Of a DNA stretch of 64,000 nucleotides, positions 1,721 through 59,011 are shown piece after piece. This stretch comes from Hormiphora californensis (lineage: Eukaryota; Animalia; Ctenophora). Below the pieces are notes generated by a model, which saw only the letters and a program-made list of their open reading frames with translations, had not been told where the DNA came from and searched no databases. The translations under genes and the position numbers were made by a program. The DNA lies in NCBI GenBank assembly GCA_020137815.1, contig CM035350.1, forward strand, positions 124,001-188,000. The letters are read 5' to 3'. Position 1 is the stretch's first letter; each line of letters starts with the position of its first letter.

Positions 1721-2349
1721 GTAGTTGTTTAATGTAGTTTTATGTAGACATAGAGGCCAGCTTGTTTAGACTTTTAGATAAGAGTCCGCTCTGTGTTGAC
1801 TTTTTAGATAGTCGCCTGCTTTTAGACAAAGAGTTCAGAGTCCTCCTAGAGTTTAGACTTATTCGGAATCTAAACAAGAGTCCATTGTAAAATTTTGAGA
1901 TAATATAATTCTTTAGGTAGCACTGCTTGTACAACTTATAACACCCCCCTTAAGCCCAGTGATGGTTCGGGCTACAAGTGTTACACAGTGAAGCGTCTAT
2001 ATATACAATTATATCTATACCATCGCACACTGAATTTTCTGTTTTGGGGGGTGTCATAACTTGTCGACCGGAAGAGCTAGCTACTTGAAACTTTTACCGT
2101 CAGTAGAGGTCTATGTGAAGCTTCTTGTACCAAATTCAGCCTCTTAGCTCATCTGGTTCCGGAGTTAGGAGGGGTCGAAAAGTGCCAAAATGGGCTCAAA
2201 CTTCCAAATTGTTAATCCACGATGTTGGCAAGCGGGCCCACTTTTTCGGGGAAAGTTTTTGGGGGGGTGGGATGGGGCCACCTTTGCGCTTGCCAGCGTA
2301 GTGATTTATATATTATCGTCTTTTATCATATATCAGCTCTTATCAGAAA

Positions 2350-2660
2350 GTTGGCGATTGGAGATCTGCCTTGGATGAGAGAGTAACATGGCTAATCAGA
2401 TGCAGATTGGTCGATGTGAAGAACTTTTCCTTGGCTGCATCTTTATATCTTGCCGACAGGGTCCAGGGATGAAATACTCTGTGGGACGGGGAGCATCTGC
2501 GTCTGCCGCAGCTTTTGCTAACTGATCCGCGTCTGCTAACTGATCCGCACGTTTCCTGCTATCCCGTCGTGTCCCGGACACCAGATGATGGATACCAGGC
2601 ATTTTCCCTCAGCTTCTCTAGAGTCTTGATGAGGGCCACGGTACTGTGAGCGGTTAACTT
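2350..2660 (-). pseudogene. Spacer: RNase H C-terminal fragment of non-LTR retrotransposon type
   Basis: Hand translation LIKTLEKLRGKCLVSIIWCPGHDGIAGN/ADQLA(DADQLA)KAAA matches the WxPGHxGIxGNExADxLAK motif. Confidence 0.8.
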
Positions 2661-2761
2661 ATTCGTTATCCATCTCCATTGGTCTCCAGAATATTCCGGT
2701 GTTTTGGCATTATCATCATCTTCATTTATCAGCCTTTATCAATTATATTATAGCTTTGTTA

Positions 2762-3195
2762 CTAGATCCAAAAACCAAACAAGTTTGGTGGATAGCCGGG
2801 CCGCAGGAATTAAAAAACGTGCGAAAGTTCTGAACTAACTACTTTCGGGGCCTGGGGTGCTGTAAACTTCGCGTCTTCCATGATTATAACCAGCATCATT
2901 TTCAAACTATACGTAGGAAACTATCGCAATGATCAAATTATCATTATTTTTTTTATTCCGCATTATCAAACATACAGATCCACACATGTCACATATAATG
3001 TACTGTGCAGTGCACACAGTGGGTCGTTTCAGAGTCTGTTTACAGGATAATAGCGTGTTTTGAAAGAACGGCTGACTATCATGGAACGCGAATTTAACAG
3101 CCCCAGGCCCCGAAGTTCATGTATCAAAATTTTCGCACGTTTTTTAATTCCTGCGGCCCCGGCTATCCACCAAACTTGTTTGGTTTTGGATCTAG
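2762..3195. mobile_element. MITE with ~65 bp TIRs inserted at the end of array repeat 1
   Basis: CTAGATCCAAAAACCAAACAAGTTTGGTGGATAGCCGGG..AACGTGCGAAA is mirrored at 3130-3195. Confidence 0.8.
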
Positions 3196-4359
3196 ATCAA
3201 GCATTGTTATACTACGAAATGCATTTGTAATACTAGCTGAATTTAATAAACGCGATTAGGGTACAACCTGGCGTTTTTCATCATCGAGTGACCCAACCAA
3301 ATGACTTCACAGGGTTTAGGCCATACAAATGGACCTCAAATATGCAATTTTAGCCCTAAAGTCGATTCTATTTTTTGCAACCGCTATTTTCAAAGTGGCG
3401 TTTTTCAATTTTTGGTGGAATTTTTAACCTCAGGACCACTTTTTTTGAGATAGAAACATTAATTCTTGGAATTGAAGAGATCTAAGGTAAATAAGCCCAA
3501 GAAGGATTTTTGAAATGGAGCTTATTCTGGCCATGAGAACGGTTTACTTTTTTGCTCTTTGACAGCTGGCGAGAAGTTCCCATGCTTCATTAGAGATGAA
3601 AATCTGGAACATAGTTGCTCAAAACGATTATCTATGTGGCCCAAAAATTTTGGAACTTCCCGCCAAAGATGTGGTGTACAGAGCTTGTTTTGCGAAACCA
3701 TCTTTTTGAAAAGAGGGAAATTCCCGTATCTCAAAAACGGATGATCGTAAGGAACCTGCGACCAAGATTCAGAAGGTCCGATTTTTGGGGGGTCTTCTGA
3801 GAGACATTTGCTCTACTCCCAACCGTTTTTGCTTGTATTGCGAAAAAGGTATCAGCAAGTAAGGGGGAAATCAGCCCGAAGCAGTGCAGTCGATCCGAAG
3901 ATCACGAATATTATTTATTTTGATTATTAGTCAAGGATAATGATCACGGATAACCATTGATAATCAGATATATCTGATACAATCTGAATCAGGTTTTAGT
4001 GTGCTAATTCGTTCTTTCCTCATTGATTTTTAAAATCATCGTATATTTAAGATAGTCATAAATCTAGATATGACTACCAATTATAACTGAAAATGCGGCA
4101 ATAAACCTAATTTTATAAAATAAATCTGATTCAATGTTAATTTAGACTCTGAATCGCTTTTTTTCTAGGTATTTTAAAATCGTCTTAAATTTAAGACAGT
4201 CATAAAATCTAGATATGACTACTAATTATATCTGAAAATACATCAGTTGACCTACGTTGGCAAAATATGTATCATAAAATTATGATTAATAGTTTAATTT
4301 GCTCTTTTCTAGGTTTTTTTGAAAATCGTCTTAAATCAGATGACCGTAACTGAAGAACC

Positions 4360-4619
4360 AAAAGTCAAAGTCAAAGTTCAGGTCTCTCCCAATCATTGGG
4401 TATGCCTGCGGTGCTTATCTCCGATTGAAGTCCTAAGACACTCCGTACCGAAGTACTAAACTTGCAGTCGTGGGGACCAGCCCTACGTGCAAGGGAGTGT
4501 GACTTTCCAGCAGTTGCTGTACCAATTTATAGCTCGTTAACTAGACGGCTTGCATCGGGTCCCGAACCCGGGACCTTCTGCTGAGAAGCGAGTGTGTTAC
4601 CATACACCACCCCACCGCG
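4360..4619 (-). mobile_element. tRNA-derived SINE
   Basis: Minus-strand head with A box (GTGGTGTATGG) and B box (GGTTCGGGACCC), (TGACTT)n tail, and an 11-bp TSD ACTGAAGAACC (4349-4359 / 4620-4630). Confidence 0.8.
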
Positions 4620-5282
4620 ACTGAAGAACCGTAACTCGGATTTGCGTGAAATTTTGAACGTGGTTCAAGATGTCAGGCAACACCATCGTACCAACGCAGT
4701 AGCGCCTCCCGTTCCGTATGTAACGACGGGAAGGTGGTCTAAGACGCCAAAGAAAACTTAAGACACCTGTTAATACAAGGTACACCACTAGAACCTACCG
4801 ACTCCCAAAGTTTCATGTGGTAACAAGTGTCCGAGGGTCTAGCGTAAAACTGTCGGCCTCTATGCTTTACGCAAAATTGTCGTTACTCGTTACGTGTTGG
4901 TCTCAGTCACGCTAATAGCGGCCCTTTGCTAAAACACACGACCATCTGTAGCACAAAAACCGTAACTCCGATTTGCATCTGAAATTTATTTGAACGTGTG
5001 CTCTAGGTGTCAGCACACACGAACTACACAGCGGCATGTTCGTATATCACACACGGGAAGGTGGCTAAAACAAGGTTGAAATTGCCGATTTCAGACAACA
5101 AGTATAGTAGCGCCGGTCACAATTTTCAAAAATTTTCAAAAATTCCCAAAAATTTTTTCCGCCAATTTCGTTTTCTTTTTACTGGAGTAAAGATGCTTGT
5201 TGGAGGGGAATTTTGGGGGAAATGATGGTTGGGGGAAGGGAGGATTGGGCCCCGGGCGCTTGCCAGCGCTATGATTTTATCG

Positions 5283-5570
5283 CTTCCTCCAAAGGGAGTG
5301 TATTTGTCAATATGATGATGAGGGATCTTACCCGAGACACGGAGCTGGTCCCTCTCAAAGTCAATCACTGCACCCATCTGACTCAATAGTGCCTGGATAG
5401 GAGAAGGGGAATGTTAATATCAAGAACATATACCGCAAACTCAGTAAACTTCACACCAAAAATATCAGTTGGGATATAAGCAATACGTCTCAAAGTTTGT
5501 TTGGTTGTCAAAGACCGGGGCATGAATATTGGATGACATAATGTCGTCAGCTTCACTGCTAGCACTGTCA
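5283..5570 (-). pseudogene. Spacer: retrotransposon aspartic protease C-terminal fragment
   Basis: Adjacent ORFs join as AYIPTDIFGVKFTEFAVYVLDINIPLLLSR/SQMGAVIDFERDQLRV, the PLLLS/G..L..MGA.IDF motif of retropepsins. Confidence 0.7.
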
Positions 5571-5782
5571 ATATGACATATTCATGACAGTATTATCTCT
5601 TGCCTTGTTTGAACAAAACAAATTATCTCCACAGATATCAAAACACACCGAAGACCCATTATCAACAAAACCGTGCAGCCTCCTCCCGGTAGTCCCGGTG
5701 TTTTAGCATTGTTGTTATCTTCTATCATCCTTTTAATTAATATATCAATTATGTTATAGGGGAAGGTTTTGTTATTTTACCG

Positions 5783-6044
5783 CTGATCAAACGATCAAAT
5801 AAAGCAAACAGAGTAATTTAAGTGGTATTTAGAATACGGTGTCCCTCAGACAACTTCCTTGTTTTTCTGTGTTGCTGCTGTGTCTATATCTAGTTTGCCT
5901 CAAGAACCCGATGCTTTCATAAACCTTTCGCTAATCTATTGAGCCCTTGATTACAGTTCTAGGAGTATCTTTTGGGCGGCAGCTTTGTTATTTTCAGTAT
6001 TGCTGGTATTGCAACATTCTTTGGCCGGAGGTCACAGGTGCCAG

Positions 6045-6080
<36 letters not shown>

Positions 6081-6980
6081 CTCAACTAACTGTATGACAC
6101 TCATGACTCTAACTGTATAAAATTCCCAAATTTCTCTAGGTACTACCCTTAAGATGCTGTAGGTACCCCAAATTCAATCAAATTTTGATCCAAATTCCAA
6201 ATGTTAGTGTGTAAATACAATATTGTGTACAGTATTTTAGGTCACGTGAACAAAGTTGACCATACATGGTCATAGAATGGGTCACATGATCATCACGTGA
6301 TTGCAGTGAACACTGAACAACCAATCAGAGTTATCCCGTGCCTGCACTCTGCAATCAGAAGCCGATCAGAGGCCAGAACGGGTGCCTCACTTGGTCCAGA
6401 ACCAATACGCGGGAACAAACGTATCATGTGAACCACATATTAACCATATATAATGGTCATATCATGGGTTAATGATCATCACATGACTGCAGTCAACAGC
6501 CAATCAGAGGCCGAACGGGTACCTACTTGGTTCTGAATCACGTGACCAGTATAATACACTAGTAACCTAAACAAGAATTATTGCTTAAATGTATTCATAA
6601 TGCGGTGTTTCCCTGCCACAGCCCACAAATGGGTGTAAAATTGATGACTAAGCTTCAAAACTGGATTTCCGGGTAAATTTTGCACCTAACTGTCGGACCC
6701 CTCCGGGGTACCACCCCGCTAAGAGTCATGAGTGTCATGCAGTTAGGTGTTGAGCCCCCCCCCCCCCCCCCCCGGTGCCAGGGCAACTGCATAGATGGTT
6801 GCACGTCATCTTACTTTTTCTGCAGCCGCAACTGATTTTGCACGAATTGTTGCAGCTACAACAAATTCCAAGGCTGGTGGAAAAAGAAACGGCACTTGCT
6901 GATACAACTGCTTCCTCCCTTGGAAGTGTCGGTGGGGTTCTTTGATTGTCGGTAGCATCTGTATAGGCCTATGTAGTAGG
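5783..6980 (-). pseudogene. Spacer: Cys8 (CxC/tesmin-like) zinc-finger fragment typical of DNA-transposase C-termini, interrupted by a MITE
   Basis: Removing 6045-6774 and one TSD restores an open frame ..SLGICCSCNNSCKISCGCRKSKMTCNHLCSCPGTCDLRPK.. Confidence 0.7.
6045..6774. mobile_element. MITE with poly-G/poly-C termini
   Basis: C(G)nCTCAACTAACTGTATGACACTCATGACTC pairs with GAGTCATGAGTGTCATGCAGTTAGGTGTTGAG(C)nG. TSD GTGCCAG (6038-6044 / 6775-6781). Contains a Helentron-like 3' end at 6569-6618. Confidence 0.8.
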
Positions 6981-7092
6981 CCTCCAATTACACTGCAGGG
7001 CTCCATGAGATATTCAGTCTACATTTAAATGGGGTAGTTCCGGTGTATCAGTTTTTATTACAATTATAATATTATATTTTATAGCTTTGTTT

Positions 7093-7374
7093 GCTGAACC
7101 ACACGCACCTTGTGTTCGGGAAGTCAGGTTTGTGGTCTTTTGCGAGTGGGTAGACTATTGGGTGGGGCAAGTGAAGTATCTGCCTTCCTTTAGCAGTCCC
7201 TTTAGGAGAGTGTTGGGCTTTTAGCTGGAATGAGTTTGGAGGGGTCCTCGCTTAGTTCACCCATCCTTTGCCAATGTTGCTGTGTCTCTCCTCCTCATGC
7301 CCGCGTGTGGAGCGGGTGCAGAATCGATTTGTCTTGTCGTTGTGGTTTAGTTCAGTTACTTTCTTACTTTCTTT
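7093..7374 (-). pseudogene. Spacer: Penelope-like retroelement RT N-terminal fragment
   Basis: NDKTNRFC..ELSEDPSKLIPAK/NTLLKGLLKEGRY/PIVYPLAKDHKPDFPNT matches the PLE motifs DK.N, L..DP and P..Y.L.K.HK..P. Confidence 0.75.
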
Positions 7375-7503
7375 CCTCCAATTACAACTGCAGGGCTCCA
7401 TGGGCATTCAGTGACTTTTAAAATGGGGTAGTCCTGTGTATCAGTTTTTTATCACGATTATAATTATTCTTATATTTTATCGTGCATTGTTATTTTAAAA
7501 CCG

Positions 7504-8026
7504 TCTCCCTCTCAAGTCGGGACCACAACCTCCTCCCAATTACCACCACCTCCGCCCCCTCGGACCTCCGCATACCAAGGGGTGTGTCCTGTAACCACCT
7601 ACAATCTTATAATCGTAGATTTAAATAACAATCCAGATTTCCGGAACTAGTAAGAATTCATCTCCGTCCTCACTTGCCGGTAATGAGCCTTGTATATCGT
7701 TTTCCCCCTACTTCCCCTTCCATCGTTCTCGTATATTATCAAGTCTCAAAGTCGCTTCAGGTCATCAAGGTAGACAGATGCGCCTATCCGATAGTTAGTC
7801 CGGTCCAGAACAAACATGTAGGACATCAGAGTCTCGAACATAGCGATGAAGGTTTTGAACTTCCTTGCCCGTGTTGCATGGAGGTATGCGAAGAAGTTTG
7901 TCAGGAAGTCAAGTATTGCGTTCTAGAATATATATATATACATAGGGTAGTTTTTCCGTTTCTGCACGTTCCCATTGCAGGTAGACCCCGTTGGCCGCTC
8001 TGCATTCTCCTTCTTCATACTCACAT
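7504..8026 (-). pseudogene. Spacer: large DNA-transposase fragment (Academ-like)
   Basis: 7750-7920 reads ILDFLTNFFAYLHATRARKFKTFIAMFETLMSYMFVLDRTNYRIGASVYLDDLKRL, like the RA.R.G.F..FFALDR.NY..VY..D motif. The family name is from memory. Confidence 0.6.
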
Positions 8027-8369
8027 CCATGGAATCCCGTGATGTCCGTCCTAGACAATTATGTATAGCTTTGTTATTTATATTTCCCTACTCCCAAGGC
8101 CAGCTCCCTCCGTTCATTATCATTTGCCGCATAATCCAGGGGCACAACCAGGGCTATACAAGAGTTCAACCAAGCAGAAGGTCAGCGGGCCGGGGTGCGT
8201 CTGATGAGGCACTACATGAAAACCTCTCTCCAAATCCTCCCACGTGGACCTCCACATACCGAAGGGGGTGTCCAGAACCACCTACACCCAGGGTCCATCC
8301 TCCTCCATTTTCATTAGAAAGCATCGTTGCAGAAACCATATCACTTGGGGATGAATCCAACCACTTCCT

Positions 8370-8461
8370 TTCTCCCAGGCCATGTTATCTCCACAGATGT
8401 CGAAACAGACAGTGCACGTCAATGTGTCCTTCAGGAAGTCCATGTCGAGTGTTGGGGCCAT
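8370..8461 (-). pseudogene. RING-finger-like gene start fragment
   Basis: MAPTLDMDFLKDTLTCTVCFDICGDNM. A related VCFDICGDNL sits at ~5620-5650. Confidence 0.45.
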
Positions 8462-8499
8462 GACTGAGACATGACATAAAGGTAAACACTACCGAGTTA

Positions 8500-11440
8500 A
8501 CCAAGCAGAAGGTCTTCCAATCCCACACCTGTGTTTTCGCAGGTATTCGAGTTCTCCCCTTGCATGTGGTAGAAAATGGAAAGTAAGAAATTTATACCAA
8601 AAAAGATGGGCAGGTGCACAGTTGCGAGCAACTGTGCACCTGCCAAAAGATGACTATTTGATAAAACGACAAAAAGATGAAAATACGATACAACATGCGA
8701 GTGTATGCACCCGCACGACGGGTTAGTAAGGGTCTGTCCAGTTCTGTCTGGGCCAGAGCAGCGATCCACGAAGCTGGCAGCTGTATTGCCCGCTTCGTGC
8801 GAGCTAACATACTATTGCCTCAACAAGAAGGGAAAACAACGGATTCATCTTTGAGTCGACTCAATGTACCTCGATAGTATATAGTCCAGGACCTATATAT
8901 TCCATGTACCTCTATTGCCTCTATATATAGTAAGTAGGCAATTGAAGCATTCCGTTTGTCCTTCCAATATATTCCCTGTAGTTTCGATGGAGTACATCTA
9001 TCTATCTATCTATCTATTTCTCCCCTCCTACTTGTATCGGAGGTCTTCTCAATTCTGTTACCCCTACTTCCCTCCAGTACTCCATAATAGGCTCGAAGGT
9101 GGATTTGTCAACAACAAAATCCCCCTGATTAGGGCATCTTACTCCTTACTTCTCTTCATCCTGCTTCCCACTATGGAATAGTTGTGTTCCCTAACCCAAA
9201 AGTCTGAGAGTGGACTTGGAGTCCAAATTTTTAGGAGAAATATGACTTGTACACCTATCATGGCCTTGGTCAGCGCCTCACGTTGTAAACGGATCATGGC
9301 AATTGTCCGCGCATTTAACACAGAGAGAGAGAGAGAGAGGAGAGAGAGAGCGAGAGAGAGAGAGAAAGAGAGAAATGTAAAAAAAAATATTCATTAGTTA
9401 TTTTGAGTTTTGCGGGAATTGGACACGGGGATAGCCTGCTTCAGAGTCGGAGCTGCTGCTAACCGTTGCACCATGGACAGAGGTGCTACTCTAAATTCAA
9501 GAGACTATAAATCGGCGGCTTGTAAAGCCGCGGAGAGTGGAGTAGAACAACAAGTATGGAGCGGAAGAGTGAGAGTCATTTTATTGGAGTCTAAATATGG
9601 TGACCGTTCATCGCAACATGTAAGGGGGGAGGGGAGATCATGGAGCCGTATGAGTGTCTTGTCACCATTCAAATGCTGCTTCTCTCTCAGGTCTCAGTTG
9701 ACAAGTACGCGCGACAACAAGGGCCATGATACGTTAAACAATGCAAGGCGCCTGACAAGGGCCATGATACGTTTACAATGCAAGGGCGACCAAGGGCCAT
9801 GATATGTTTACCAAGGCAAGGCGATGAACACGGGCCATGATATGTTACAAGCAAGGCGCTGACAAGGGGCCATAATATGTTTACACAAGACAAGGCGCTG
9901 ACCCAAGGGCCATGATATGTATACAAGGGCAAGGCGCTGACAAGGGCCATGAATGTTACAAGGCAAGGTGCGACAAGGGCCATAATAACGCAAGGCACTT
10001 ACTGCCTTATGAGCTCTCTTTCTCTCTCCTCTTATCTCTCCTCTCGCTTTCTCTCTCTCTTTCTCTCTTCTTCCCTCGTTTTTAGTTCGACTTTTTCCCT
10101 ATTCTAACTCACGAATTCGACTTGGAGTTCACGCTCGAAACTCCACGACTTTGTGTATGGGGTTGTGTTGTCCGGTATTGTTCGAGAAGCTGTTATAATA
10201 AAAACTTACATTTAAATTTAAGTTTTTTGATTGTACAAAACTTAGTTATGAGTTTTCTACAATTTGATCAATCTTTACCATTCTTTCGTCAAGTGCTTCT
10301 TAGCTGAACGATCGTTAATAACAATTTCCCAATTAGCATCGCTGCTTACATTGGGTCGGCCCTGCAGGGTTGTCGTGTCCCTTCCAATCACGTGCTTCTA
10401 AAAAAAAGTTTAGTCACAAATTCACAAATTCGACACAGTACCGGGCGTGTAAACGACAGCCAATTCAACATGGTCGGGGCGGGGTGGTAATCAATTGACA
10501 AAGGAAAACTAAGGCGTTATCCAAGATCCATAGCTGGCGAGTGCTAATAAGGGGGCGAGGTAACTGCGATCATGGTCTTTGTTTGTTTACCTCTACATTG
10601 CAAATGAATATTAAATTAAGCAAATAAATACATAAATAGGCAATAGTTGACTCCTTAATACACCGTTGCGGTTGTCATGACAATTTACTTTCCTTATAGT
10701 TTATGTTACAATCTTTGCTCTTATTACAACTGTTGACCGAGATCACTCTTTGAAAACTTTCTTACAAATCTGTTACCTTCGTTCCTGTTGTAAAGTTGGT
10801 AATGAAAGAAGAAATTGAGGAGCACACCACTCCTTTGGGGAAAACGCAATATGGTGTACAGCAAAGAAAGACTGCAACAAAAATCGCCATCAACTGCAAG
10901 CACTATCCATTAAAAAAACTATGTGTCGTTATTGACAACCATTCTTTCATCTCGCACCGTGGTTTCAAGATTCACTCGCCACACGTCAGCTTTCAAATCA
11001 ATTCTCTTCTGCCTCGCAGAAGATTGGCGGGGAAGCACGTCCGGAGCATGGGCGGTCATTATAACAAGGTAAAACACGGGACCTGTTCGAATTTCGGGGT
11101 TGTGTAAACGACTTATAACTCTTATAACAGTTATGTAGTGACTACAATAACTGTTAGTAGAGGTTTATAAGTCATGTATATATATTCTATGTTAAAGTTA
11201 TATGGCCAATTGACGCTTTGCCTTCCCATGTATTATATATGTTCCCTATATAGTTTCGATGTCATGTCACTCGACAAGTCGGTTACTATTAGGGCATCCT
11301 CCTCTTCACTTCTCTTCATCCTGCTTCCCACTATGGAATAGTTGTGTTGTCCGTTATTGTTCGAGACTGTTATAATAAAACTTACGTTTAAAAGCCCATG
11401 GTATACTTTTAGAAAACTTACATTTTCTTTTTGAATACCT
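8500..11440 (-). repeat. Scrambled, indel-rich paralog of the MATH locus (32820-33740, 37585-37760, 38245-38850)
   Basis: Blocks 8515-9000, 9140-9190, 10185-10730, 10740-10925, 10927-11350 and 11350-11430 each match those regions, in shuffled order. Confidence 0.75.
9715..9995. repeat. ~38-bp minisatellite flanked by (GA)n/(TC)n tracts
   Basis: About 7 units of CAAGGGCCATGATATGTTTACAA.GCAAGGCGCTGA. Confidence 0.8.
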
Positions 11441-12400: not shown

Positions 12401-13639
12401 TAAAAAGTTTATATTTAAAAGTTTCTGAAATATTGCGAGGCTGAATTAACGAGAGTAAGGTAATATAAATGTTTTATAAAAACGATAAAAATAACACAGC
12501 ATCTTCCCTGCCTGGTTCTGCACGAAAAAGGTTATAAAGTTTCTGGGGGCATCAAATAGATCATTGCTGACAGTATCTAGCTGTTGTTGCCTTTTTTCGT
12601 CAACTCTCTCCTTTCGTGGTATCTCCTCCTTCTTTCAAATAGCTAGTTTCTACCCATATATCTTCCTACATATGGCAAATTATATATGGCAAATTATATA
12701 TGGCCAGGTTAGACTGTTTTTCGTGCGCCCCGCCGCAAATTATATAGTATGCATTATTTTACATTTTATGTTCCTATCCCATTCATGATCTAGTTATTTT
12801 CTGGCGCTGAATCTTTTCCTTTTGGGAGGAGGGAGACTGAGCTGCATGATAACAGCTCTTCCCACGTAAGATAACTCAAAAGTATCACCAAGATATCTTC
12901 GGGCAAGAGAATTAACATATTGGATCTAATGCCTGAAGGATTTATTGGCATGAAGGAGTTATTGGCATGACGGAAATTATTAGTGGTTTAATTCGGTAAC
13001 CCTGACAAAGAGCGGCTCGACCCTTGTCGAACATAAAACACACTCCCTTCTCGCACACAATGTCCATAGCAGGAAGGAATTTTCGATATCTCCTTCTGGT
13101 ATGAAATTGCCTAAATTAATTATCTTTTAAAGTTTTGGGAACTCTATCCTGTCAACTAGTATTCATTTTGGAAAGCATTTTCTCGAAATTGGTAAATTAA
13201 AGCAAGATTCACTCTTTGAATGCAACGGAGAATAGGCGTTGTACAGGATTTTGCATGAAACTCTGCTCCAGGACGAAAAAGACCCGAAAAATACGATTGT
13301 GATATTTTTGGGACTCTATCTTATCATTCTACTACGTCTTAGAACGCTTTTTGTGAACGCGTTTTTCACCAAAAAAAAACACCTTAAAACGCTGATGTTC
13401 TCAATTTTGCCGACAATTTAGAGAGTTGACTTCAAACGGCATTCGATTCTACCCTCAAAAATAGGTGGGGGACAACCGTAACGTATCTACCTATCAAGGA
13501 TCTTTAAATAAAAAAAACGTCTTATTTTCAAAGTGGAATAGAAGATAGCTCTTTTTCTCAATTTTCTGACGCCGCCGCGGGTCTACTGATTTTTCCCGCC
13601 ACCACCACGACTTCAGGGAGGTCTTCCCGATCAGTTACA

Positions 13640-14759: not shown

Positions 14760-15312
14760 AACCGACCGCGAGCGTTCTCTGGGACAGGTTTGTCTCCTCT
14801 AGAACCTCATCTTCACAAGTGATGGTTTTACATGGAAAATTATTGTAACGTATCGGTGAGAGATGGCTTCATCAGATACGAATGAAATATCGACAACCGA
14901 ACCGCGAGCGTTCTCTGGACAGGGTGAACCATAGCTTGCAGGCCTGATACATTTCAGGCAAACGACGGGTCAAGGAAAGTAAAAATTTGAAGAAATCACT
15001 TCATTGGTAGCTGATGAAGACTCGGTCTCCCTCAACCATCCTTTCCATCGTGACCTGCATATAGTAGAGACTGTGCTTGATCGTCAAACACCTGGAAGCA
15101 ACTTTTGGATTTTCGTGGACGCAACAAGACCGTGGACAGTTCAGACCACGTTCTGGAAACAGCACGACAGTTCAGGAGCTCAGGTGAGTCCAACTAGCGA
15201 AAAAGGAACAGGCGAACTTCGCCGGGAGATAATTGAAGGAGAGACTTGTTCAATCGAGCGGTTTCTTTTATTTTTTCTGGTGGGCTCGGTATTTTCATCA
15301 TCTTTTGACATG
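14760..15312 (-). pseudogene. Degenerate 5' copy of the F-box/LRR gene
   Basis: Aligns with 24310-24830 (MSKDDENTEP.. start) with many indels. Confidence 0.75.
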
Positions 15313-15779
15313 CTCAAAGAGGAAATAAATGAGGTGAGGAATGAAATCAAAAATGGGACTTGATCAAAGTTCACTTTGCAATACAACAGTCCCAATGGTA
15401 TCCCTTGGTTTTAAGTCTATCATTTTGGTCAGATTATGCGCTTGGCTCGCGGAAGCGTTCGGCGACGAAGCGAGGGGGTACGAAATAATTGAAGGATTAA
15501 TTGTCGGCTATTCTTCGCTCTTATAAGTGGGGCGGCATGGTTATTGGTTGTTTCCTATCTTAGACTACTGCAGCTCTAAATAGGGAGGAGATATAATTAT
15601 TAGAAGAGACGGGTGTTTTTAGGACACTTCAGTGGAAGATAATACCAAATATTCGCCAAAAGGCAACGAACCTTTAAATATTAAATATAGTAGTGGTAAA
15701 ACGAGTCATTTTTGGTTCAAAAAAAGGTATAAATGTGTTTGTTGAAACATGTAATCTTATACAACTAAAACAATAACAT

Positions 15780-16137: not shown

Positions 16138-17092
16138 TGTTAAGGGTGTATGTAGCGCTGGTTAGTGAATGGGTGAGCGATGATAGATTGGTTCTGGGGC
16201 AAGGAACACGGAAATAAACAGATCTGTCGAAATGAATTATTCGACAGGAATATGTATAGTCTTCGGTGTTTTTAGCTCAGTGATCGCTCGTGATATCGAT
16301 CTTGACAACGCTCCTTCTTCCGTCCTCGTCGTAGTATAAATACTCTTCCTAGAATCCGGATTGACGTAGATTCCTCGTGTTAAACGTAGAGGTTGTTGTG
16401 ACTATCTCTTCTTAACAGTTCAGATTGTTATGATTATCTCCGCAAGTGCCAGGATGTTATGACTATCTCCACAATGATCTCACTCGGTCCAAGCTGTTCC
16501 GAGTAACTATGACGTACCGAATCCGATTTGAAGTGGGTGAATAAATATATATTCAATTTAAAGAAGAGTGGGTAGGAACCCAATTTATCGGGGGTGCACA
16601 TGAGTGTACATATTTGTAATGACGAAAAGAGGTGTATAACACATCCATACACCAAATTTTTAAGAATAAATTTCGGTCCCGTGGACCGACAAATTATTCG
16701 TGAAATAATCCACCGCTTTAATCGACTGGTTGGACATTTGGCTATCGAACAGATTTATCACCATTAAATTATGGTATTTTGGTTTCTCTTGGCACAGGGA
16801 CTAAAATGTTTCATCCCTGCAATTTTCAATCCTCTTTTGGCACCAGCTTTGATGCAGTGAGTCGCGGTAGCCCATGGTTAAATGATAGTGGACCAACCCG
16901 CACTGTTTGATCCCATTTAGGCAATTTATAATGATTATTTTGACAGTGTGACTTACTACATCAGTATAGTCGTTTGTATGTTTTTTATTTCACAGCTAGT
17001 TTTTTGGACCCGTAAATCTGACGTTTGTTTCTACGAGGAAAGTGCTTATGGCCATTAGCATATTTCCAGAAATTACTAGTCCAGGTATCTTT

Positions 17093-18070
17093 TTAGCTTG
17101 CAATCTTCACAAAACATGTTCCATTGTTCCTCGGAGTAGTGGGGATTACTGCTTCTTCTCTAGCTGCTTTCTCCTCGCTTTCTCCGCTCTGTACATCCTC
17201 AGCATCACCTTCTCTTCCGGTTGTGTATAGCTTTGAAGCTCCCGCGATATATGCCAAGTCATCTTTCCTCTGGGTTTCTTCAGAGGTTTCCCTGGAAACG
17301 TTGAATTCTGGCTCTATCTTTACTGGTGCTGGGATTGAAGGTCCAGCTTCTGTTTCATCTGTTGGTTGAACAGCTGTAGGTAAGTCTGGTTGCCCTTCTT
17401 CGTCAGTAGTCATCTTCGTGTGACTTTCCTCCGTCTCGTTAGTCGTTAACTCTGGTTCGCTTTCGTCCGATTCATCAGTCATCATCTCTAGCTCCAGTTG
17501 CCTTTCCTCCGCTTCATTAGCTATCTCTGGTAGCCTCTCCGTCGTTACATCAGCCATTGTTTCTGGCTGACTTTCCTCCGATCCATTAGTCGTCACTTCT
17601 GTGATCGTATCGTCGTTTTCTGGTTGTCCCCTTGTCTCCTTGGGACCTCCGAGACGGTTATAATTGAGCCTCTCCATAGGTTTCCTGTCCCTGGAAGAAG
17701 TCCGCCTCTCAGCAGGTATTGGTGTTGACGCACTAACTGGATCAGTATCTCTGATTTCGCCTATGGGCTGCGTCACCTCTGCATGTTCCTCAATCTCTGC
17801 TCCCGAATGAGCCGTAGAGAAAGGATCCTGTTCATCTTCTTGGCTCCCAACTGAGCTGCTAGCCGCCGGTACAGAACTGGGTGTGTTGCAAGTCGGTCTC
17901 CGGAATGAGTAGAATCCCCAATCCTCGTCATCAGAACTGGATGAGCTGGAAGAACTTTCCACATTATACTCTGGCATCCTAGTAGTTACATTTTTTGGAA
18001 TGGTATTTTCTTTCCTCAATTCATTCACCTTATCATTGGGTGAGTATTTATTCGTCTTGTACAGCTTCAT
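17093..18070 (-). CDS. Acidic low-complexity ORF after integrase (Pol tail or accessory ORF)
   Basis: 325-aa E/S/T-rich ORF inside the element. Confidence 0.45.
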   Translation of the reverse strand: MKLYKTNKYSPNDKVNELRKENTIPKNVTTRMPEYNVESSSSSSSSDDEDWGFYSFRRPTCNTPSSVPAASSSVGSQEDEQDPFSTAHSGAEIEEHAEVTQPIGEIRDTDPVSASTPIPAERRTSSRDRKPMERLNYNRLGGPKETRGQPENDDTITEVTTNGSEESQPETMADVTTERLPEIANEAEERQLELEMMTDESDESEPELTTNETEESHTKMTTDEEGQPDLPTAVQPTDETEAGPSIPAPVKIEPEFNVSRETSEETQRKDDLAYIAGASKLYTTGREGDAEDVQSGESEEKAAREEAVIPTTPRNNGTCFVKIAS

Positions 18071-18108
18071 TTTTGTGATGTTGACTAGTTTTTTCTCTGT
18101 TTCTGTTT

Positions 18109-21100
18109 TTACAATGTAATTGTGGTCAGATAACTTTTCTGTGATGAGGTACGGTCCTTCAAATCTTGGTAGCCATTATGTTGAGCTGGTTTACGAGCAG
18201 CATGCAATATGTCTCCTCTTCGAAGAAAGGTCCGTGCACGTGGTTTGTCATACGCAGCTTTCATGTATTTGGCTTTTTCTTGTATAGATTTGACCGCCTC
18301 TCTAGTTACCTTCTGTATCTTCATGTATGTTTCATAAATTTGTTTTTCACGTGTGTCACACAATTTCATTTACTGCGTTTTCTGTTCTCTCATTATCGAC
18401 AACAAACCAATCTCTTGGGGCAGCAAGTTCCCTAGAGAATACTAGAAAATTTGCAGTATGTTTTGTTTTCGAACTCTTATAAACAGTTCATGGTGAATGT
18501 TATGTATCCGATCCATTGATCAAAATTCATTTGTTGTTGTGGTGTTAACACGTTCGTATACATGTGTTTATACGTTTGTTCATTTGCTTCACATAACCCA
18601 TTTGCTTGTGAGTTGCCAAGCCACTCCATGTTTGCTTTGTATGTCGAACATCTTCAACATAGCTTGGAATAATTTTGAGGTAAAAGCAGATCCCAGATCA
18701 TGCCTAATGGATTTCATAACACCTAGACGTTGTATCCATTCCCTCACAATAACTCTGGCAGCCTCCTCGGCCCCAGTGGATTTCACAGGTATTGCTACCA
18801 CGTAATTAGAGAATTGGTCCACCATGACCAATAATGCAGTGTACCCTCTTGCATTTGGTGTTTTGGAGCGTTCCAAAAAGTCAATTGCCACACACTGTCC
18901 AAATTCCGTGTATGTCATTGGTTTTAGTGGCGCTTTTTTGAATCTATGGGGCTGTTTTCCCCTGGCACATTTTAAGCATGCATCGCAGTACATGTGGAAC
19001 ATTTTCCGTTGTTTGTAAAAGTAGTATGTCTGTTGACAACTGCTTAGACATGTTTCGAAACCAGCATGACCGTTTTTGTCATGGTAAGCGTACATTGTTC
19101 TCTCTACGAGAGTGTGTGGTAGAACAGTTAATGTTCTGTCATTTTCTTTGTTGTTGGGGTCTATCAACCTCTTTTTGAGTACACCATTTTCAACATGTAA
19201 CATTTTTATCTGTCTCCAGTAGTGGAGAAGTTCAGCCGGTGTTTTCCTGCTAGACAGATGTTTTGGTGTGTTCTTGTTCTTTAGCCAACCAATGACTGTT
19301 GACAATGTTATATCATCAGCATAATCTTGCTTTATCTCTGTCAGAGTGACAGGTATATCAATTGCAAGTGATTTGTTGACCTGAACCACGTGGTCAGTTA
19401 GATTTCTTTGTTTGTCATCCGATCTCTTCATTGTATCATTTTCCAAGGTTTGTGTACCTACACAGTTTGTTTTGGGTATTGGGTGTCGGCTCAAATAATC
19501 TGTCATACCCATGTGTACAGATTCGCCAGCAATGTGCATTATGTCAAAATTGTATTCTTCCAATTCAGCTATTTTTCTGTGAATGTAGCTACTCTCTTTC
19601 TTGAAAATGGTTTTCAAGTTTAGCAGAGCTTTACAATCAGTTAGCACCTTGAACCTTTTTGTACCCATCAGGTACATCCGGAAGTGCTTTAGAGCATGAC
19701 ATAGACCAAGAAATTCTAGTCTAGTTTGCCCCAAATTTTCTCTGATGCACAGGTACCCGATTTTGACCAATAGGCTATGGTCCTCTTTTTCCCATGTAAT
19801 ACTTGGTTTAGTGTGGCCCCATGGCCGATTTTACTGGAGTCAATTGTCAACTCATAATTTTGGTCAGGGTGCTGGTAGTTTGGAATCACCAAGACCGGTG
19901 TTTTTCCAAGTGCATTTTTCAAATTTTCAAATGCTTTTGTGGAAGTAGAATTCCACTCAAATTTGCGTTTCTTCTGTAGCATGTCGTATAGTGGGGTTGC
20001 TATTTTGCTGTAATCTTTTATATAGGCTCTGTTATAATTTACAGCTCCCAGAAATTTTTGCAGTTCTTTCACAGACTTTGGCAATTGTAGTTTCTTTATT
20101 GCATCCACACGAGCTGGATCAATAGAAATGCCATTTTTGTTCATGATGTGTCCGAGAAATTTGACTTGTTTTCTGAACAATTGTGTTTAGAAGGACTAAT
20201 TTTCAATCCTCCAAATGACAGTCTTGCTAAAACGAATTCCAGCCTGTCTAGATGTGTATCAACAGTGTTGCTTCCTATTAGCACATCATCCAAGAAGCAA
20301 ATTAGCGCTTGGAAAGGAACTTTTTGGAACAATTCTGCCATAGATTTGGCAAATATACTACTGCTAGAACAGTGACCCATAATGAGCCTCGTCCATTGAT
20401 AGCGAGTGTTTTTATAAGTGAAAGCTGTTAGTGGTTTGCTTTCCTCGTCAAGTTTTATCTGATTGAAACCTTTTGTGAAATCAAATGAGGTTAGCCACTC
20501 ACATTCATCCATGTTGTTCATCACCGTGTTTATATTTGGTAATGGGAATGTTTCGGGGATGCTCTCTTTGTTGAGCTGTCTCAGGTCTTGCACAACTCGG
20601 TATTTTTTCGTTCCTGGCTTTTTCACCAGAAGACCGGACTGTTCCAGATCCCTGGTCCTTTGCACTCTTCAATTTGTCCAGACTTGACCAATGTCATGAG
20701 CTCTTCTTCCATGACGTTTTGTAGATCATATGGAACTTCCCTACTGGGTATCCACCTTGCTACATAACTGTCTTTGAGTTTCAAGGATGCCTCAACAAAT
20801 GTGGCAGTTCCTAGGTCAAATTGGTGTTTTGAAAAACAATGGGAATAGTGTTTCAGAATGTTTTTTAGTTTGGTTTTGTGTTCTTCATCAATTTGGAGTG
20901 ATCCAACGCCAAGCTGATCAAACAATTTTTCTATATCCTCCCATTTGTCCCTATTGCGTGTCACCTCTTCAGGTTCAGCTTCAGGTAATCGAGGAATATT
21001 TTCAAGAGTAACATCTTCTGATGTTTTGTAAACATTTTGTCTGTACGACTGATCCAGTGGCATCATGTTGCCAATGACCCTATTTCTGTGCAGTGTTATG

Positions 21101-21693
21101 ACGTGTGGGAATGGATTGATACATCGCACCAGTATCTCATTACCCTTGCTATGCGCCATAGAATTTTCAATGCACACACCCATAGAGTTTGTTATTCTCC
21201 GATTTCCAAACAATACCCCTTCATATGTTTTCTCAGATTTAGGGATGTTCAGCATTGCTGAGATGTGTGTGACGCTGTTTCCAGGAATGGTCACAGTACG
21301 TTTCACCTTGACTTTGCAAGTTTGTGGTAGGGCGATAGGATAGCTCCTTGCCAATGTTTTCCCGTATTGGGTGAATATTTTGTTTTCCTTCACATCAATT
21401 CTCATATCAAGTTTCTCCATCAGATCTGTCCCAGCTAGGATGTCATCAGCCAGGTTGTCCATGACAACAAAACGTTGCTGTACTTCCGTTTTTGCAACAG
21501 CTATTTTTAAGTAGATCTCTCCTTTTGGCAGAAGATTTGTTTTAGATAAGCCCCGAATTATTGTTTCTGTGGGCTGAATTTTGTCTTGTTTACCGAGTTG
21601 GTAGACAGTGCGTGTACTGATGAGAGATGCACCAGCTCCAGTGTCCAGTAAAATGTTCAACGGTGTATTTTCAATGTGACCTGTCACGATCAT
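18109..21693 (-). CDS. pol: Gypsy pol (protease, RT, RNase H, integrase), broken by frameshifts
   Basis: LLDTGAG; DLRQLN, DFTKGFNQI, FLDDVLI; IDSSKIGHGA, TDCKAL, DYLSR; H-x4-H..C-x2-C finger; IDF, VDQFS, HDLGSAFTS. Confidence 0.9.
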
Positions 21694-21756
21694 TTGTTTT
21701 CCTCTCCTTGGTTGCCTTTACAAGAATCCGCAGAATAACCTTGGTGCAACCCGCAT

Positions 21757-22730
21757 CTAGTTTAAATGGTTCCGCCTATTCGAGTAGCAGTTTCTGGCCA
21801 TGTGACCTCTCTTCCCGCAGTTGTAGCACCTGATCTGATTATCCGACCAGTTCACTTTCCGTCGGTGTGGTGTAGAATCTCTTCGTGAGTTGTATCTGCC
21901 GCTGCTCCTGTTACGGTGGTTGTAGTAGCCCCGGTATCTATCTTGTTCCATGCTTGGGGTGCGACTCCTCTGTCTGCTGCGATCGTTCCTTCCCCTGCTG
22001 TTATCCCGATATCTCTCACTGCTCCTCCACCGATCCTGGTTACCTCTCGAGAAACTATCCTCTCGTGCCTCTCCTGCTTGTAGGACGTCAGTAGAAGGTT
22101 CACCGTTTATCAGGTTGTTTACAGTCTCCAATTTCAGTGCCATTCTCATCCCTTCCTCATAGGATGTTAGTGATGCTTCATTCAGTTTTTGTTTAATATC
22201 CCTATTTCTCAGACCTCTCAGTAGTACAAGGAGTGCAATGTCATCCGCATCCTTCATGTTTCCATAAGACAATCTTGCTTTTTCCTCAATGTTTGCACAG
22301 AACGAGGTAATGCTCTCTGTTGATGACTGCTTTAAACTCATCAATTGTTGTTTCACAGTTTGTGTTTCACCGCCAGAGAAATGTCATTTTTAACCGTGTC
22401 GGGTAGACCGTCCATCAAGGTTCTCAAAGTTGGATATGATGTGTTGTCTACACACTGTAAAAACAGAGTATCAAGATTTTTTACAGTTTTTGTGTATTTT
22501 GCATAATCCTCAAAACGGTCACAAAAAGTGTTGAAGTTGTCTCCCTTTTTGAATTTGGGGAGTTTTGATCCGGTATTTTTCGTGAACCCTGGATCTGGTT
22601 CCAATCCATGTTCTGTCATACTGACAGCCAATTTTTCCATTTCAGCCTTCAGACTGATCATTTTTTCTTGGAGTTGTTTTTTCTCGGTCATATTTTTTGG
22701 AGTAGTGGTTCGCTTTGTAGCAGGCTCCAC
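21757..22730 (-). CDS. gag: Gypsy gag (two frames, one frameshift)
   Basis: CCHC knuckle CYNCGKRGHMARNC and LKQ...ESI gag motif. Confidence 0.85.
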
Positions 22731-23148
22731 TTATGTTAAGGGTGTATGTAGCGCTGGTTAGTGAATGGGTGAGCGATGATAGATTGGTTCTGGGGCAAGG
22801 AACACGGAAATAAACAGATCTGTCGAAATGAATTATTCGACAGGAATATGTATAGTCTTCGGTGTTTTTAGCTCAGTGATCGCTCGTGATATCGATCTTG
22901 ACAACGCTCCTTCTTCCGTCCTCGTCGTAGTATAAATACTCTTCCTAGAATCCGGATTGACGTAGATTCCTCGTGTTAAACGTAGAGGTTGTTGTGACTA
23001 TCTCTTCTTAACAGTTCAGATTGTTATGATTATCTCCGCAAGTGCCAGGATGTTATGACTATCTCCACAATGATCTCACTCGGTCCAAGCTGTTCCGAGT
23101 AACTATGACGTACCGAATCCGATTTGAAGTGGGTGAATAAATATATAT

Positions 23149-24828
23149 TCAATTTAAAGAAGAGTGGGTAGGAACCCAATTTATCGGGGGTGCACATGAG
23201 TGTACATATTTGTAATGACGAAAAGAGGTGTATAACAACATCAGACGAAACTCATCGTTGCCTGGATTATAATTGTCTGTACCAGGGCAAATGAGCTCAA
23301 TATCCATACGGTGAATCTTTGGGCACATCTCCATTATTTCTGGCAGACATCTTTTCATAGAAAACCGGAAACCACTACAAGACAACTCCTTTAGATTTGG
23401 CGTTCGAGCTAAAAGAGTCAAAAACTTCGAGGACAAGTCGGGATCACTCCTTATAAAGACATCCCATACAGACAATCGGGTCAACTTCGGGTCAAAATCT
23501 GGAAGTCGGTGGAGATTTTCGTTAATTAGAAACGTGAAGGGAATCGTCAGTTGTTCCAGAGTCTTGCTAAAAGAAAGCAGGATTTCCATTATCGTCTGGC
23601 TGTAAACTTTTCTGCAATTGTCAGTGAAAGATATCCACTCGATAGGATTTCCGTCCAGCATTTTAGCAATTGACTTTCCTGTCATATTTGCACAGCCGTG
23701 AAAGCCAAATAACGCAAGTTTGGGCATTCTGGACAGCAAGTATCCTAAAGATTTTTCCTCCAGACTCTCACATTCCAAGATGTCAAGATACTTCAAGTTT
23801 TTGAAATATGGTAAAGGATTAGGGCCGATCAGGAAAGATCCTCTGATAAATAACCGCTCCAATGTTTCTGACACATTGCCAAATATTTTGTTCAATACCA
23901 AAGGTGATTTTCTTCGGTAAGGTAAGGGTAATAACTTTCCATCGAAATTTTTTAGAGGAGAAAGGTTTAGGTAAAGTTCACGAAGTGGATGTTTCTTTAA
24001 ACTGCTGGCAAGATAGTCCTCTGAGTTGAAATTTGCATCTCCTAATTCGAGCTTCTGAAGGAATGGCTGGTTTGAAATGATTTGGCAAAACCGATCCTCG
24101 GCACAATTTTGGTTCCAAAGGTTGTTTATATCAAGACTCTCGAGTGTTCTGGGCAAGTAAACAGCTGCAGCGTGTGCCAAAGCTATGGACATTGTACGAC
24201 ACCCCAAGCGCAGCGACTTCAAATGTGTTATCGTGTTTAGAGCCATTAAGTTCTCCATCGAAATGTCGCATTCAACGTCATCGACAACTTCTTTAAAGGT
24301 GTTAAGAGCCTCCTCTATAACCTCATCTTCACAAGTGATGGTTTTACAAAAATTATTGTAACGTATCGGTGGAGAGATGGCTTCATCAGATACGAATCGA
24401 AATCGAACCGACCGCAGAGCGTCTCTGGACAGGTTGAACCATAGCTTGCAGACCTTGCTACATTTCAGCAACTCAAGAGGGTCAAGAAAGGTAAAAATTT
24501 GAAGAATCACTTCATTTGGTAGCTGATGAAGACTCGGTTCTCCCTCAACCATCCTTTCCATCGCGAACTCTGCAAATCGAGGTTTACTCTGTTGAGACTC
24601 TGCTTGGTCGTCGACACTGGAAGCAGTCCTGGATTTCCGTGAAAGCAACAATGCTAATAACAGTTCAGACCAAGTTCTGGAAACAGCACGACAGTTCAGG
24701 AGATCAGGTAAGTCCAGATAGCGAAAAATGAACAGGAGAACTTCGCCGGGTAGATAATTGAAGGGAGACTTGTTCAATCGAGGCCTTTTACTGAGTGGCT
24801 CGGTATTTTCTTCATCATCTTTTGACAT
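23149..24828 (-). CDS. Intronless double F-box/LRR protein, truncated by Gypsy; last ~28 aa come from the LTR
   Basis: Two F-box motifs (YLPGEVLLFIFRYL..CRAVSRTW; QLPNEVILQIFTFL..CSKVCKLW) followed by LRRs. Confidence 0.9.
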   Translation of the reverse strand: MSKDDEENTEPLSKRPRLNKSPFNYLPGEVLLFIFRYLDLPDLLNCRAVSRTWSELLLALLLSRKSRTASSVDDQAESQQSKPRFAEFAMERMVEGEPSLHQLPNEVILQIFTFLDPLELLKCSKVCKLWFNLSRDALRSVRFRFVSDEAISPPIRYNNFCKTITCEDEVIEEALNTFKEVVDDVECDISMENLMALNTITHLKSLRLGCRTMSIALAHAAAVYLPRTLESLDINNLWNQNCAEDRFCQIISNQPFLQKLELGDANFNSEDYLASSLKKHPLRELYLNLSPLKNFDGKLLPLPYRRKSPLVLNKIFGNVSETLERLFIRGSFLIGPNPLPYFKNLKYLDILECESLEEKSLGYLLSRMPKLALFGFHGCANMTGKSIAKMLDGNPIEWISFTDNCRKVYSQTIMEILLSFSKTLEQLTIPFTFLINENLHRLPDFDPKLTRLSVWDVFIRSDPDLSSKFLTLLARTPNLKELSCSGFRFSMKRCLPEIMEMCPKIHRMDIELICPGTDNYNPGNDEFRLMLLYTSFRHYKYVHSCAPPINWVPTHSSLN

Positions 24829-25617
24829 GCTCTAAAGAGGGAAATAAAACTTGAGGTGAGGAATGAAATCAAAATGGGACTTTGTATGTAAATGTAATAC
24901 ATACTTATCACGTGACCCCTTTTTCCATTAATAATTTTCTTCGCTTAATAATTAAGGAAGTGATCCCTGTTATATCTCATGTAGAGATGTGTATGTTGAG
25001 ATGTGTGTAGAGTGTGAGAGAGAAAGGGATGGAGTGAAATCTCTTTTTTTTGTCTAAACAAATTCAAAAATGCATCTGAAAGAAGAAAAATAAATAAAAA
25101 ATGTCTCGTGTCAGGGGTTACAGTCCTGGAGGACCGCTGGAGGATACCCTGCCTGGAGGACCGCTGGAGGATACCCTGCCTGGAGGATACCCTGGGTGGT
25201 TAGTGGTCAGGCATTTCCAGGGTGTCCTGATCCAGGTTTACAGGGTTAAGGCTCGTTTCTCCCTCTGCTGGAGGATACCCTGGAGGACTGCTGGTGGATG
25301 CCCTGCCTCGGTTCTTCCTGCAAGGAAAAGAGGGGATGATTAGGGTTAGGATTTATGGGAAGTTTCGTTATATTTGATAGAACAATAACTAATGACAAGA
25401 TGTGATGAAAAGAAGATAAAAAGATGATAAAAAGATGATTTAATGATGAGTCAACAAATTCTGATAAAATGAATAATCAATGATAATTGACAAAAGTAAC
25501 CATATAATAGTCACTCGAAGTCTACTGAATTTGACTAAATAAAGCCCATCTTCTTCAGATATTCAAAACATTTACGGCCTACACTCGATTCTCTCTTTTC
25601 TCACGTGGATTATTAAT

Positions 25618-28103: not shown

Positions 28104-28217
28104 TTAATTATTTATTTAGTCTAAAATGGATCCTTTTTTCATGAACGCAACCGTGTGAAGGAAACTCGCACATAGTTTCATATCGTTACTCCTCTTTGTG
28201 TCTATTGTGTCAAGACA

Positions 28218-30718: not shown

Positions 30719-31185
30719 CTATGGTTCGACATCCTCAGCAAAAACAATGTTGTCTTTGCTTTGCTTCCGAGGTCTTCCCATCTTACCGATGACAAATCAT
30801 CCTCCACCATAGCTGGGAAATCACCCGGGAGTGGCAGTTCCCAGATGGACATCAGGCACGCTACCCGGAGTGACTCTTACTCCCTCCTCTTCCTAGGACC
30901 ACCTCTAACTCCTCGTCCTCCCACGGGAACAGTTCAAGGAGCCTCGCTGCTTGGCCGGCCATCTTGGAATACGATCAAAATTATCACCAAGATATCTTCG
31001 GGCAAGAGAATTAACATATATTGGCTCTAATGCATGGGAGGACCGGTATGATCTCTCAGCCTCACAGTACACTGTCTCGAGGTACTCTTCTCCGCTTGTA
31101 TCTACTCAAGAATAGTAGCTGAGCTGGCGGGTTCTCTGGTTCTCTGGTTATTGAAACTGAAAAATTTGAGAACATCAGTTTCTCT

Positions 31186-40010: not shown

Positions 40011-40095
40011 ATATACAAGGTGGGCCACGGATTGTTAGTAAGGGTTAGCGAGGTGTGACGTAAAAACGGTGATAGTTGTGAGAATAATGTATATA

Positions 40096-58950: not shown

Positions 58951-59011
58951 TCCGATGCAGAAGCATTTCAAAATCGGAAAACATTTTGTTGACAGATAGG
59001 AAACTAGAAAA

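Follow-up and report, generated by a model that had tools for sequence, protein, structure and literature searches.

A one-strand array of coding fragments punctuated by a degenerate repeat in the genome of a ctenophore, Hormiphora californensis

A window of 64,000 nucleotides from the genome of the ctenophore Hormiphora californensis (GenBank assembly GCA_020137815.1, contig CM035350.1, positions 124,001 to 188,000; coordinates below are those of the window) contains, at 2305-8081, an array in which scraps of coding sequence alternate with copies of an AT-rich repeat. Both self-comparison of the window and short-read contigs indicate that this layout is real, and the structure is unusual. Judged by its sequence, the repeat is best read as a by-product of acquisition, that is, as a target-site duplication, and not as a fixed, conserved unit. 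With slightly less than even confidence, we propose that the array grew through serial insertion of ~300-bp copies of transposon RNA, each with a long target duplication, in a locus that would supply small RNAs from one strand.

Duplication around spacer D and layout of the array

The evidence that carries this proposal centers on spacer D (7092-7374, minus strand), which lies between repeat copies R3 (7000-7091) and R4 (7375-7497). The two stretches that flank it, 6981-7091 and 7375-7491, match at 82% with a z score of 27.5 relative to shuffled sequences. Because 6981-6999 is coding sequence of the preceding spacer, C (5995-6999, minus strand), and R4 opens with a copy of these 19 bases before continuing as a copy of R3, R4 is a ~115-bp duplicate of the sequence just left of D. 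Spacer D thus appears to be flanked by a direct target duplication, the signature of insertion with a long target duplication, and the target duplications of the other spacers seem less clear. An equal insert-plus-duplication pattern is seen for another repeat, P, around a piece designated J (68-72% over ~190 nucleotides). The geometry recurs with a third repeat, T, and with 22-bp direct repeats (8162-8183 and 8494-8514) that enclose a 310-bp insert in F, a multi-copy, coding-like sequence on the minus strand (8085-8515). Since these cases share their geometry, the process seems to belong to the locus and not to one repeat.

From left to right, the array opens with R0 (2305-2345), a truncated repeat copy whose left side is cut by the end of a miniature inverted-repeat transposable element (MITE). 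Spacer A (2346-2660), which resembles the C-terminal part of a retroelement-type RNase H and is frameshifted, is followed by R1 (2661-2761), whose right end has received later, nested MITE-like insertions (2762-5273, with inverted arms at 2762-2884 and 3078-3195). Beyond these lie spacer B (5287-5570), which resembles the C-terminal half of a retro-type aspartic protease in two frames; the 112-bp piece B0 (5571-5682), which has a 26-nucleotide motif in common with F (z 5.7); R2 (5683-5785); a deleted relative (5786-5980) of a spacer, H, at a second locus; and Rx (5981-5994), a bare repeat right end (AGCTTTGTT) that is weakly like R5 from 5934 onward (z 5.4). Spacer C, a cysteine-rich C-terminal piece, holds a MITE (6046-6773) bounded by an 8-9 bp duplication. 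To the right of R4 come an F-related piece (7500-7603) with a further piece extending to 7748, the coding fragment of spacer E (7749-8027), the short copy R5 (8028-8081; z 5.9 to Ra and 3.2 to R1) and F. The repeat copies are read on the plus strand, and all spacers and pieces of the array on the minus strand. The second locus (39000-40012) comprises piece G, repeat copy Ra (39440-39551), minus-strand spacer H (39552-39960) and repeat copy Rb (39962-40012).

Spacer boundaries were drawn by us with MITEs excluded, and on this basis six spacers fall between 268 and 315 bp (A 315, the protease part of B 281, C 268, D 283, E 279 and the F insert 310 bp); beyond these, four others measure 104-195 bp and H measures 409 bp. 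An earlier note, made from the letters of this window, had described the spacers as unique and similar in size. The similarity in size holds for these six, but not every spacer is unique, as three pairs share sequence: 7546-7603 with 8230-8286 (z 11), 5623-5648 with 8385-8410, and 5862-5920 with 39896-39965 at the second locus (z 13.5). F-related pieces are found at 7546-7603, 5623-5648 and 32668-32697. A likeness of 7604-7748 to 9010-9127 was considered and rejected as not significant (z 0.8).

All five related AT-rich repeats described in the earlier note are present where it located them, but they do not make up the full set: R0 and Rx bring the array to seven copies (R0, R1, R2, Rx, R3, R4 and R5), and Ra and Rb add two more at 39.4-40.0 kb. 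The copies are degenerate and range from ~14 to 125 bp. Their mutual relatedness is borne out for three of the ten pairs among the original five, which beat all 300 shuffles (R3-R4 as given above, R1-R2 with z 9.8 and R1-R3 with z 4.3); another four are matched by 5-10 of 300 shuffles, and the remaining three (R1-R4, R3-R5 and R4-R5) stand at chance level apart from their common right end. R0 is 79% like R1 (z 4.3, equalled by one of 300 shuffles), with contigs extending the repeat-like sequence leftward of it, and Ra and Rb are nearer to R1 (z 9.9 and 11.0, respectively) than R3, R4 and R5 are. It is the right end that unites the copies, whereas left ends vary. The sequence AGCTTTGTT occurs four times in the 64 kb, always on the plus strand and within 2752-8067, where 0.05 occurrences are expected, an expectation that is post hoc because the motif was picked after being noticed. 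The first 19 bases of the third and fourth repeats, as bounded in the earlier note, are spacer C donor sequence.

The repeat was also considered as a structured RNA and ruled out, with all eight folds, over both strands, no better than those of shuffled sequences (z -0.7 to 1.0). A scan of the window against Rfam gave no match, the repeat included, and exact-pattern scans of metagenome contigs returned no locus.

Short-read contigs from six runs of two samples, which contain part of 6780-8520, provide a view of the array that is independent of the window's assembly. The stretch 6780-8560 is represented by 53 contigs of run X2 and 50 of run X5, with none from X7 or X8; the listing covers 12 loose ends out of 37 and 16 pieces out of 106. 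For 2296-2787, X2 contributes 23 contigs, X5 22 and X6 23, with none from X8, and the listing covers 17 loose ends out of 18 and 24 pieces out of 69. The R3-D junction is bridged by X2 and X5 contigs, and therefore in both samples, and the A-R1 junction is bridged in three runs, again from both samples. Contigs of X5 connect D to position 6982. An X6 contig joins R1 directly to the left end of B (sequence like that from 5275 onward), which is the state before the MITE insertions.

These contigs bear on the reading that faulty assembly produced the layout, or that it is a gene with the repeats as its spliced-out introns. Comparison of the window with contigs of both samples reveals many single-base insertions and deletions at 7215-7305, and no contig covers 7380-7499, so that consensus errors are likely at 7215-7500. 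Nonetheless, contigs of both samples cross the A-R1 and R3-D junctions, and R1-B is bridged as well, which argues that the layout is not an artefact of assembly. With regard to introns, the repeats, read on the coding strand, lack a GT start or AG end, and different protein families are represented among the spacers. We regard this reading as largely refuted and give it hardly any weight.

The contigs further indicate that the repeat is low in copy number, to the extent that rough contig depth is a sign of this. In X5, depth is roughly 690-830 at 2670-2703 compared with 58,509 in the MITE flank, in X2 it is roughly 82 over R1 compared with 13,978 in the MITE flank, and the depth of R1 resembles that of spacer A; across 6780-8560, depth peaks at F. 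The listed R1 contigs carry A, or else Ra-type sequence upstream (X6 record 20), setting aside a further short piece and an exception of low depth. No family of dispersed solo repeats, which the earlier note had named as speaking against its claim, is seen among the contigs listed at a likeness of at least 80%. The contigs include divergent versions of both the A-R1 and the D-R4 junction, together with three deletion joints (2359 to mid-B; 7589 to 7749 in X2, where 7590-7748 is absent; and 2461 to 2534), from which it follows that arrays have been duplicated and are eroding.

Identity and orientation of the spacers

The earlier note assigned each spacer to a different class of transposon. This is verified in part, by one strong protein match, two in-frame continuations into donor sequence, and otherwise motifs or weak matches; no piece passes a Pfam cut-off. 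None of 55 minus-strand spacer pieces did so, nor did 18 read-through frames together with P0001 (a protein described below) or 62 pieces taken from the plus strand of these spacers, which matched no transposon family in Pfam. A 581-residue read-through of 6777-8519, compared with 1.84 billion proteins, matched P0001 alone, leaving C, D and F without confirmation in that search.

The strong match belongs to spacer E, which is 85% identical (E 5.4e-15) to P0001, a Pleurobrachia bachei protein that carries no functional name; the match points to a cydippid ctenophore as the likely host. On this sequence evidence E is clearly coding. We provisionally take it to be an Academ-type transposase, its sole match being that functionally unnamed protein; the ESM Atlas returned nothing for E, and its PDB matches are at chance level. 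For spacer D, an X5 contig prolongs the frame past 7339 over 30 letters to give, by hand translation, ...TIIPTDKTNRF, and the frame in the window itself reads DKT. A change from DKG to DKT is described as a trait of the Hydra clade of Penelope-like elements in PMC8557442. Spacer D, a Penelope-like reverse transcriptase piece from upstream of the catalytic core, appears from its sequence to show this trait, and database searches yielded no homologue of it. An X5 contig that departs from the window at 6999 likewise extends the frame of spacer C, free of stops across 30 letters by hand translation. Protein searches found no homologue of C, whose PDB matches are at chance level, and we presume it to be an Academ-type Cys8 finger; C and E would then perhaps represent one superfamily.

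Evidence for the remaining spacers is weaker. Spacer A carries the RNase H motif WxPGHxGIxGN, with a Pfam RNase_H match at noise level (E 0.16) and, as its sole PDB match, the RNase H of a retroviral reverse transcriptase (E 0.047); several diverged variants of A are found among the contigs. The nearest ESM Atlas clusters to spacer B are of RVP type (score 0.82, a lead only), with no support from Pfam, PDB or BLASTP and no noteworthy BLASTP alignment to the protease of the gypsy element in the window. Spacer H at the second locus resembles a zinc knuckle (zf-CCHC_6, E 0.02; nucleocapsid match, E 0.038). F has no family match in the Pfam scans and chance-level matches in PDB.

Every coding piece with any support between 2 and 40 kb, nine of nine, lies on the minus strand, which upholds the earlier note's statement that all spacers share this orientation. 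Each of the following enters the count a single time: spacers A to E, spacer H, the gypsy element, the F-box genes and a MATH-domain piece. Support is weak for A, B and H. Such an outcome has a probability of ~0.004, calculated by hand for independent coin flips, and the pieces are not fully independent. As far as sequence can tell, the transposon pieces thus appear to lie on one strand in the manner of a unistrand cluster of PIWI-interacting RNAs (piRNAs).

Origin of the array

In the proposed series of events, the plus strand would be nicked within the repeat's T-rich right end or close to it, and the 3' end set free would serve as the primer for reverse transcribing a transposon mRNA. Because a plus-strand 3' end would prime the copying of mRNA, all inserts would become antisense on the plus strand, with no selection needed. 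The other strand would then be cut at a variable site 20-190 bp upstream, leaving the repeat duplicated with a ragged left edge; the common right ends and ragged left ends point to a fairly fixed break in the plus strand and a variable second break upstream. Growing arrays would be duplicated block by block, suffer deletions and receive MITE insertions, and a plus-strand transcript would give rise to antisense piRNAs or small interfering RNAs (siRNAs). The enzyme would likely be a borrowed retrotransposon protein encoded outside the array.

Several observations weigh against this proposal. As the earlier note rightly stated, the spacers lack termini of their own: the insert ends show no poly(A) tail and no element 3' end, and the repeat abuts coding sequence directly. 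Inserts without tails or element ends do not reflect ordinary retrotransposition, and one therefore has to suppose that priming was internal or that templates were switched. The D-R4 duplication is the sole clean one, R5 being unlike R4 (z -0.2), and junctions fall in mid-repeat at R0 and up to ~15 nucleotides apart at the right end. At 37.5-38.2 kb, several pieces adjoin without a repeat. No allele lacking D is present among the contigs listed, and all four listed contigs that cross 2660 enter R1, with no A-like contig free of R1, so that a single element might natively have the A-R1 arrangement. Most family assignments are based on motifs, and weak Pfam matches occur at equal rates on the minus (5 of 55 pieces) and plus (5 of 62) strands. 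Finally, a single orientation can also arise by selection on ordinary insertions, according to PMC10643416. It is possible that DNA-templated break repair combined with selection was the source of the array.

The array could instead be an ordinary piRNA cluster on one strand, or a graveyard of transposons, in which whole antisense elements are retained and trimmed by deletion while unequal crossing-over or gene conversion multiplies a bystander sequence. This would account for the way in which blocks have been duplicated and rearranged between 8-13 kb and 30-40 kb. It is also consistent with the deletion variants among the contigs, the sequences that spacers have in common, and the presence in the same orientation of a young, full-length gypsy element with nearly identical long terminal repeats (LTRs). 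One would expect termini and mixed sizes after decay, yet six internal coding pieces fall in the narrow range given above, and D sits precisely between R3 and a copy of the end of C plus R3. We consider this explanation unlikely, although a serious contender.

A resemblance to clustered regularly interspaced short palindromic repeats (CRISPR) raises another prospect. CRISPR acquisition takes up foreign pieces of a narrow size range, duplicates a repeat with each gain and leaves an antisense-capable memory, and the array is alike in that its target or repeat would be duplicated per gain, its foreign pieces are of similar size, and it might likewise hold an antisense-capable memory of mobile elements. 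In CRISPR arrays spacers are gained at a leader end; here the cleanest duplication, D-R4, is internal. Its repeats, unlike those of CRISPR, are long, ragged and degenerate, its spacers are ~10 times longer and not unique, and it resides in an animal genome. No Rfam CRISPR repeat family was found, the copies are not near-identical or constant in length, and no cas family was detected among the pieces scanned, which covered part of 116 long frames. The array is not a CRISPR array; the earlier note had taken the analogy as architectural only. A CRISPR-like adaptation peculiar to comb jellies, in which a site-directed reverse transcriptase/endonuclease writes ~300-nucleotide antisense pieces of the mRNAs of active transposons into a small-RNA locus at a fixed, duplicating target, seems to us unlikely. 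Of the earlier note's view, a capture process that yields coding pieces of similar size and one orientation is supported. The repeat, however, is better read as a target-site duplication than as a fixed unit, since copies differ several-fold in length, junctions shift, and neighboring pieces are joined by other duplicated sequences or by none.

Closely related is the idea of dedicated host acquisition. The repeat would then be a site selected for integration, and might also signal processing (for example, as a trans-splice acceptor), and transposon RNA pieces of measured length would be inserted there deliberately. Acceptor-like motifs number 47 on the plus strand and 28 on the minus strand, a difference confounded by T-richness; donor-like motifs show no plus-strand bias (18 versus 27). 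In addition, the repeat copies are degenerate, variable and unstructured in every fold, and other duplicated sequences act alike nearby. We judge this quite unlikely.

Helentrons carry gene fragments, and a non-autonomous, gene-capturing transposon of Helitron/Helentron or Pack type might have the repeat as its terminus, re-acquired with each captured flank. That the A-R1 and D-R4 junctions each exist in several divergent versions would then reflect arrays that spread as units. Helitrons and Helentrons are marked by a subterminal hairpin near a conserved 3' end, but the repeat forms no hairpin in any of the eight folds, and self-comparison shows neither enclosing termini nor inverted repeats around the mosaic. 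Moreover, captured flanks are not expected to be coding-only and uniformly oriented. Such an origin appears improbable.

Serial insertion with target duplication, the explanation we favor, can be compared with known systems. The rotifer non-LTR element R9 reportedly produces a long target duplication upon insertion, and target-primed insertion of this kind likewise entails a ~100-bp direct duplication and a fixed orientation to the target; here, by contrast, the inserts are internal pieces of other elements, duplication length varies, and the target is not ribosomal DNA. Templated insertions at DNA breaks, and endogenized pieces of non-retroviral viruses in mosquito piRNA clusters, are also short copied pieces of RNA or DNA that may feed small-RNA immunity, although we know of none described as a serial array on one duplicated target. 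The R2 element is present in ctenophores (PMC5035012). In the Drosophila flamenco and flam-like clusters, almost all transposon fragments occupy a single strand and run opposite to the inferred transcript (PMC10643416), an orientation that the array shares. Flamenco-type clusters span hundreds of kilobases and hold whole, Gypsy-biased insertions, whereas the array holds ~300-bp coding-only pieces of mixed kinds, includes host gene families and is punctuated by a duplicated target. The Gypsy-driven strand bias of flam-like clusters is not seen, with one gypsy element among the mixed pieces. In the ctenophore Mnemiopsis, PMC6211395 reports clusters of piRNAs and of endo-siRNAs, with multi-mapping members that map to transposons, as well as unexplained clusters of 25-mers. 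By analogy, the array may be a unistrand, piRNA-cluster-like locus that would feed small RNAs.

Surroundings of the array and implications

Repeat P, which is degenerate and ~190 bp long, occurs at 8880-9190, 10162-10216, 11181-11392, 33201-33740 and 38240-38313. Its copies alternate with minus-strand, coding-like pieces that include J, which contains a 62-nucleotide, near-perfect, AT-rich palindrome (33565-33626 and 11110-11173), and 9010-9127, which by its motif looks Merlin/ISXO2-like. Repeat T (12802-13070, 30975-31036 and 31567-31820) has a 30-nucleotide, exon-like core with acceptor- and donor-like motifs on the plus strand. The regions at 8.5-13.1 kb and 30.8-40.0 kb are paralogous mosaic blocks composed of the same modules in different order. 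Inside a P copy lies an intronless, minus-strand MATH-domain piece (33741-34008 and 37537-37870; Pfam E 2e-8) that is interrupted by a three-fold tandem duplication of ~1.75 kb, a host-gene-type sequence amid transposon scraps.

The gypsy element (16138-23242, minus strand) has LTRs that are 99.8% identical and encodes reverse transcriptase, RNase H, integrase and protease domains in several frames. Copies of an F-box gene family lie at 23152-24831, 28119-28838 and 14794-15361; two minus-strand copies are 99% alike and surround a 32-bp satellite that lies within a 1.1-kb inverted repeat. Closely upstream of the array, the plus strand of 950-2030 carries acceptor- and donor-like motifs and possibly represents 5' exons of a host transcript. 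Farther away are a gene for the condensin subunit CAP-H (48692-51792, plus strand), an intronless frame of 395 residues that resembles a membrane protein and has no Pfam match (52913-54097, minus strand), and a 53-bp satellite (55988-58951).

The novelty of the array lies in its repeat-spacer layout, of which we found no published description in a search mainly of freely accessible main texts; one-strand clusters and long target duplications have precedents. In the usual model of piRNA cluster memory, a whole element jumps into the cluster. If the proposal made here is true, clusters could also be written directly by ~300-bp RNA copies of retrotransposons and DNA transposons, with a product that resembles a repeat-spacer array. 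If instead a CRISPR-like adaptation were at work, immunity would be gained even though the transposon itself had never jumped into the cluster. Either would concern an early-branching animal lineage in which, as PMC6211395 indicates, the sources of small RNAs are poorly understood.

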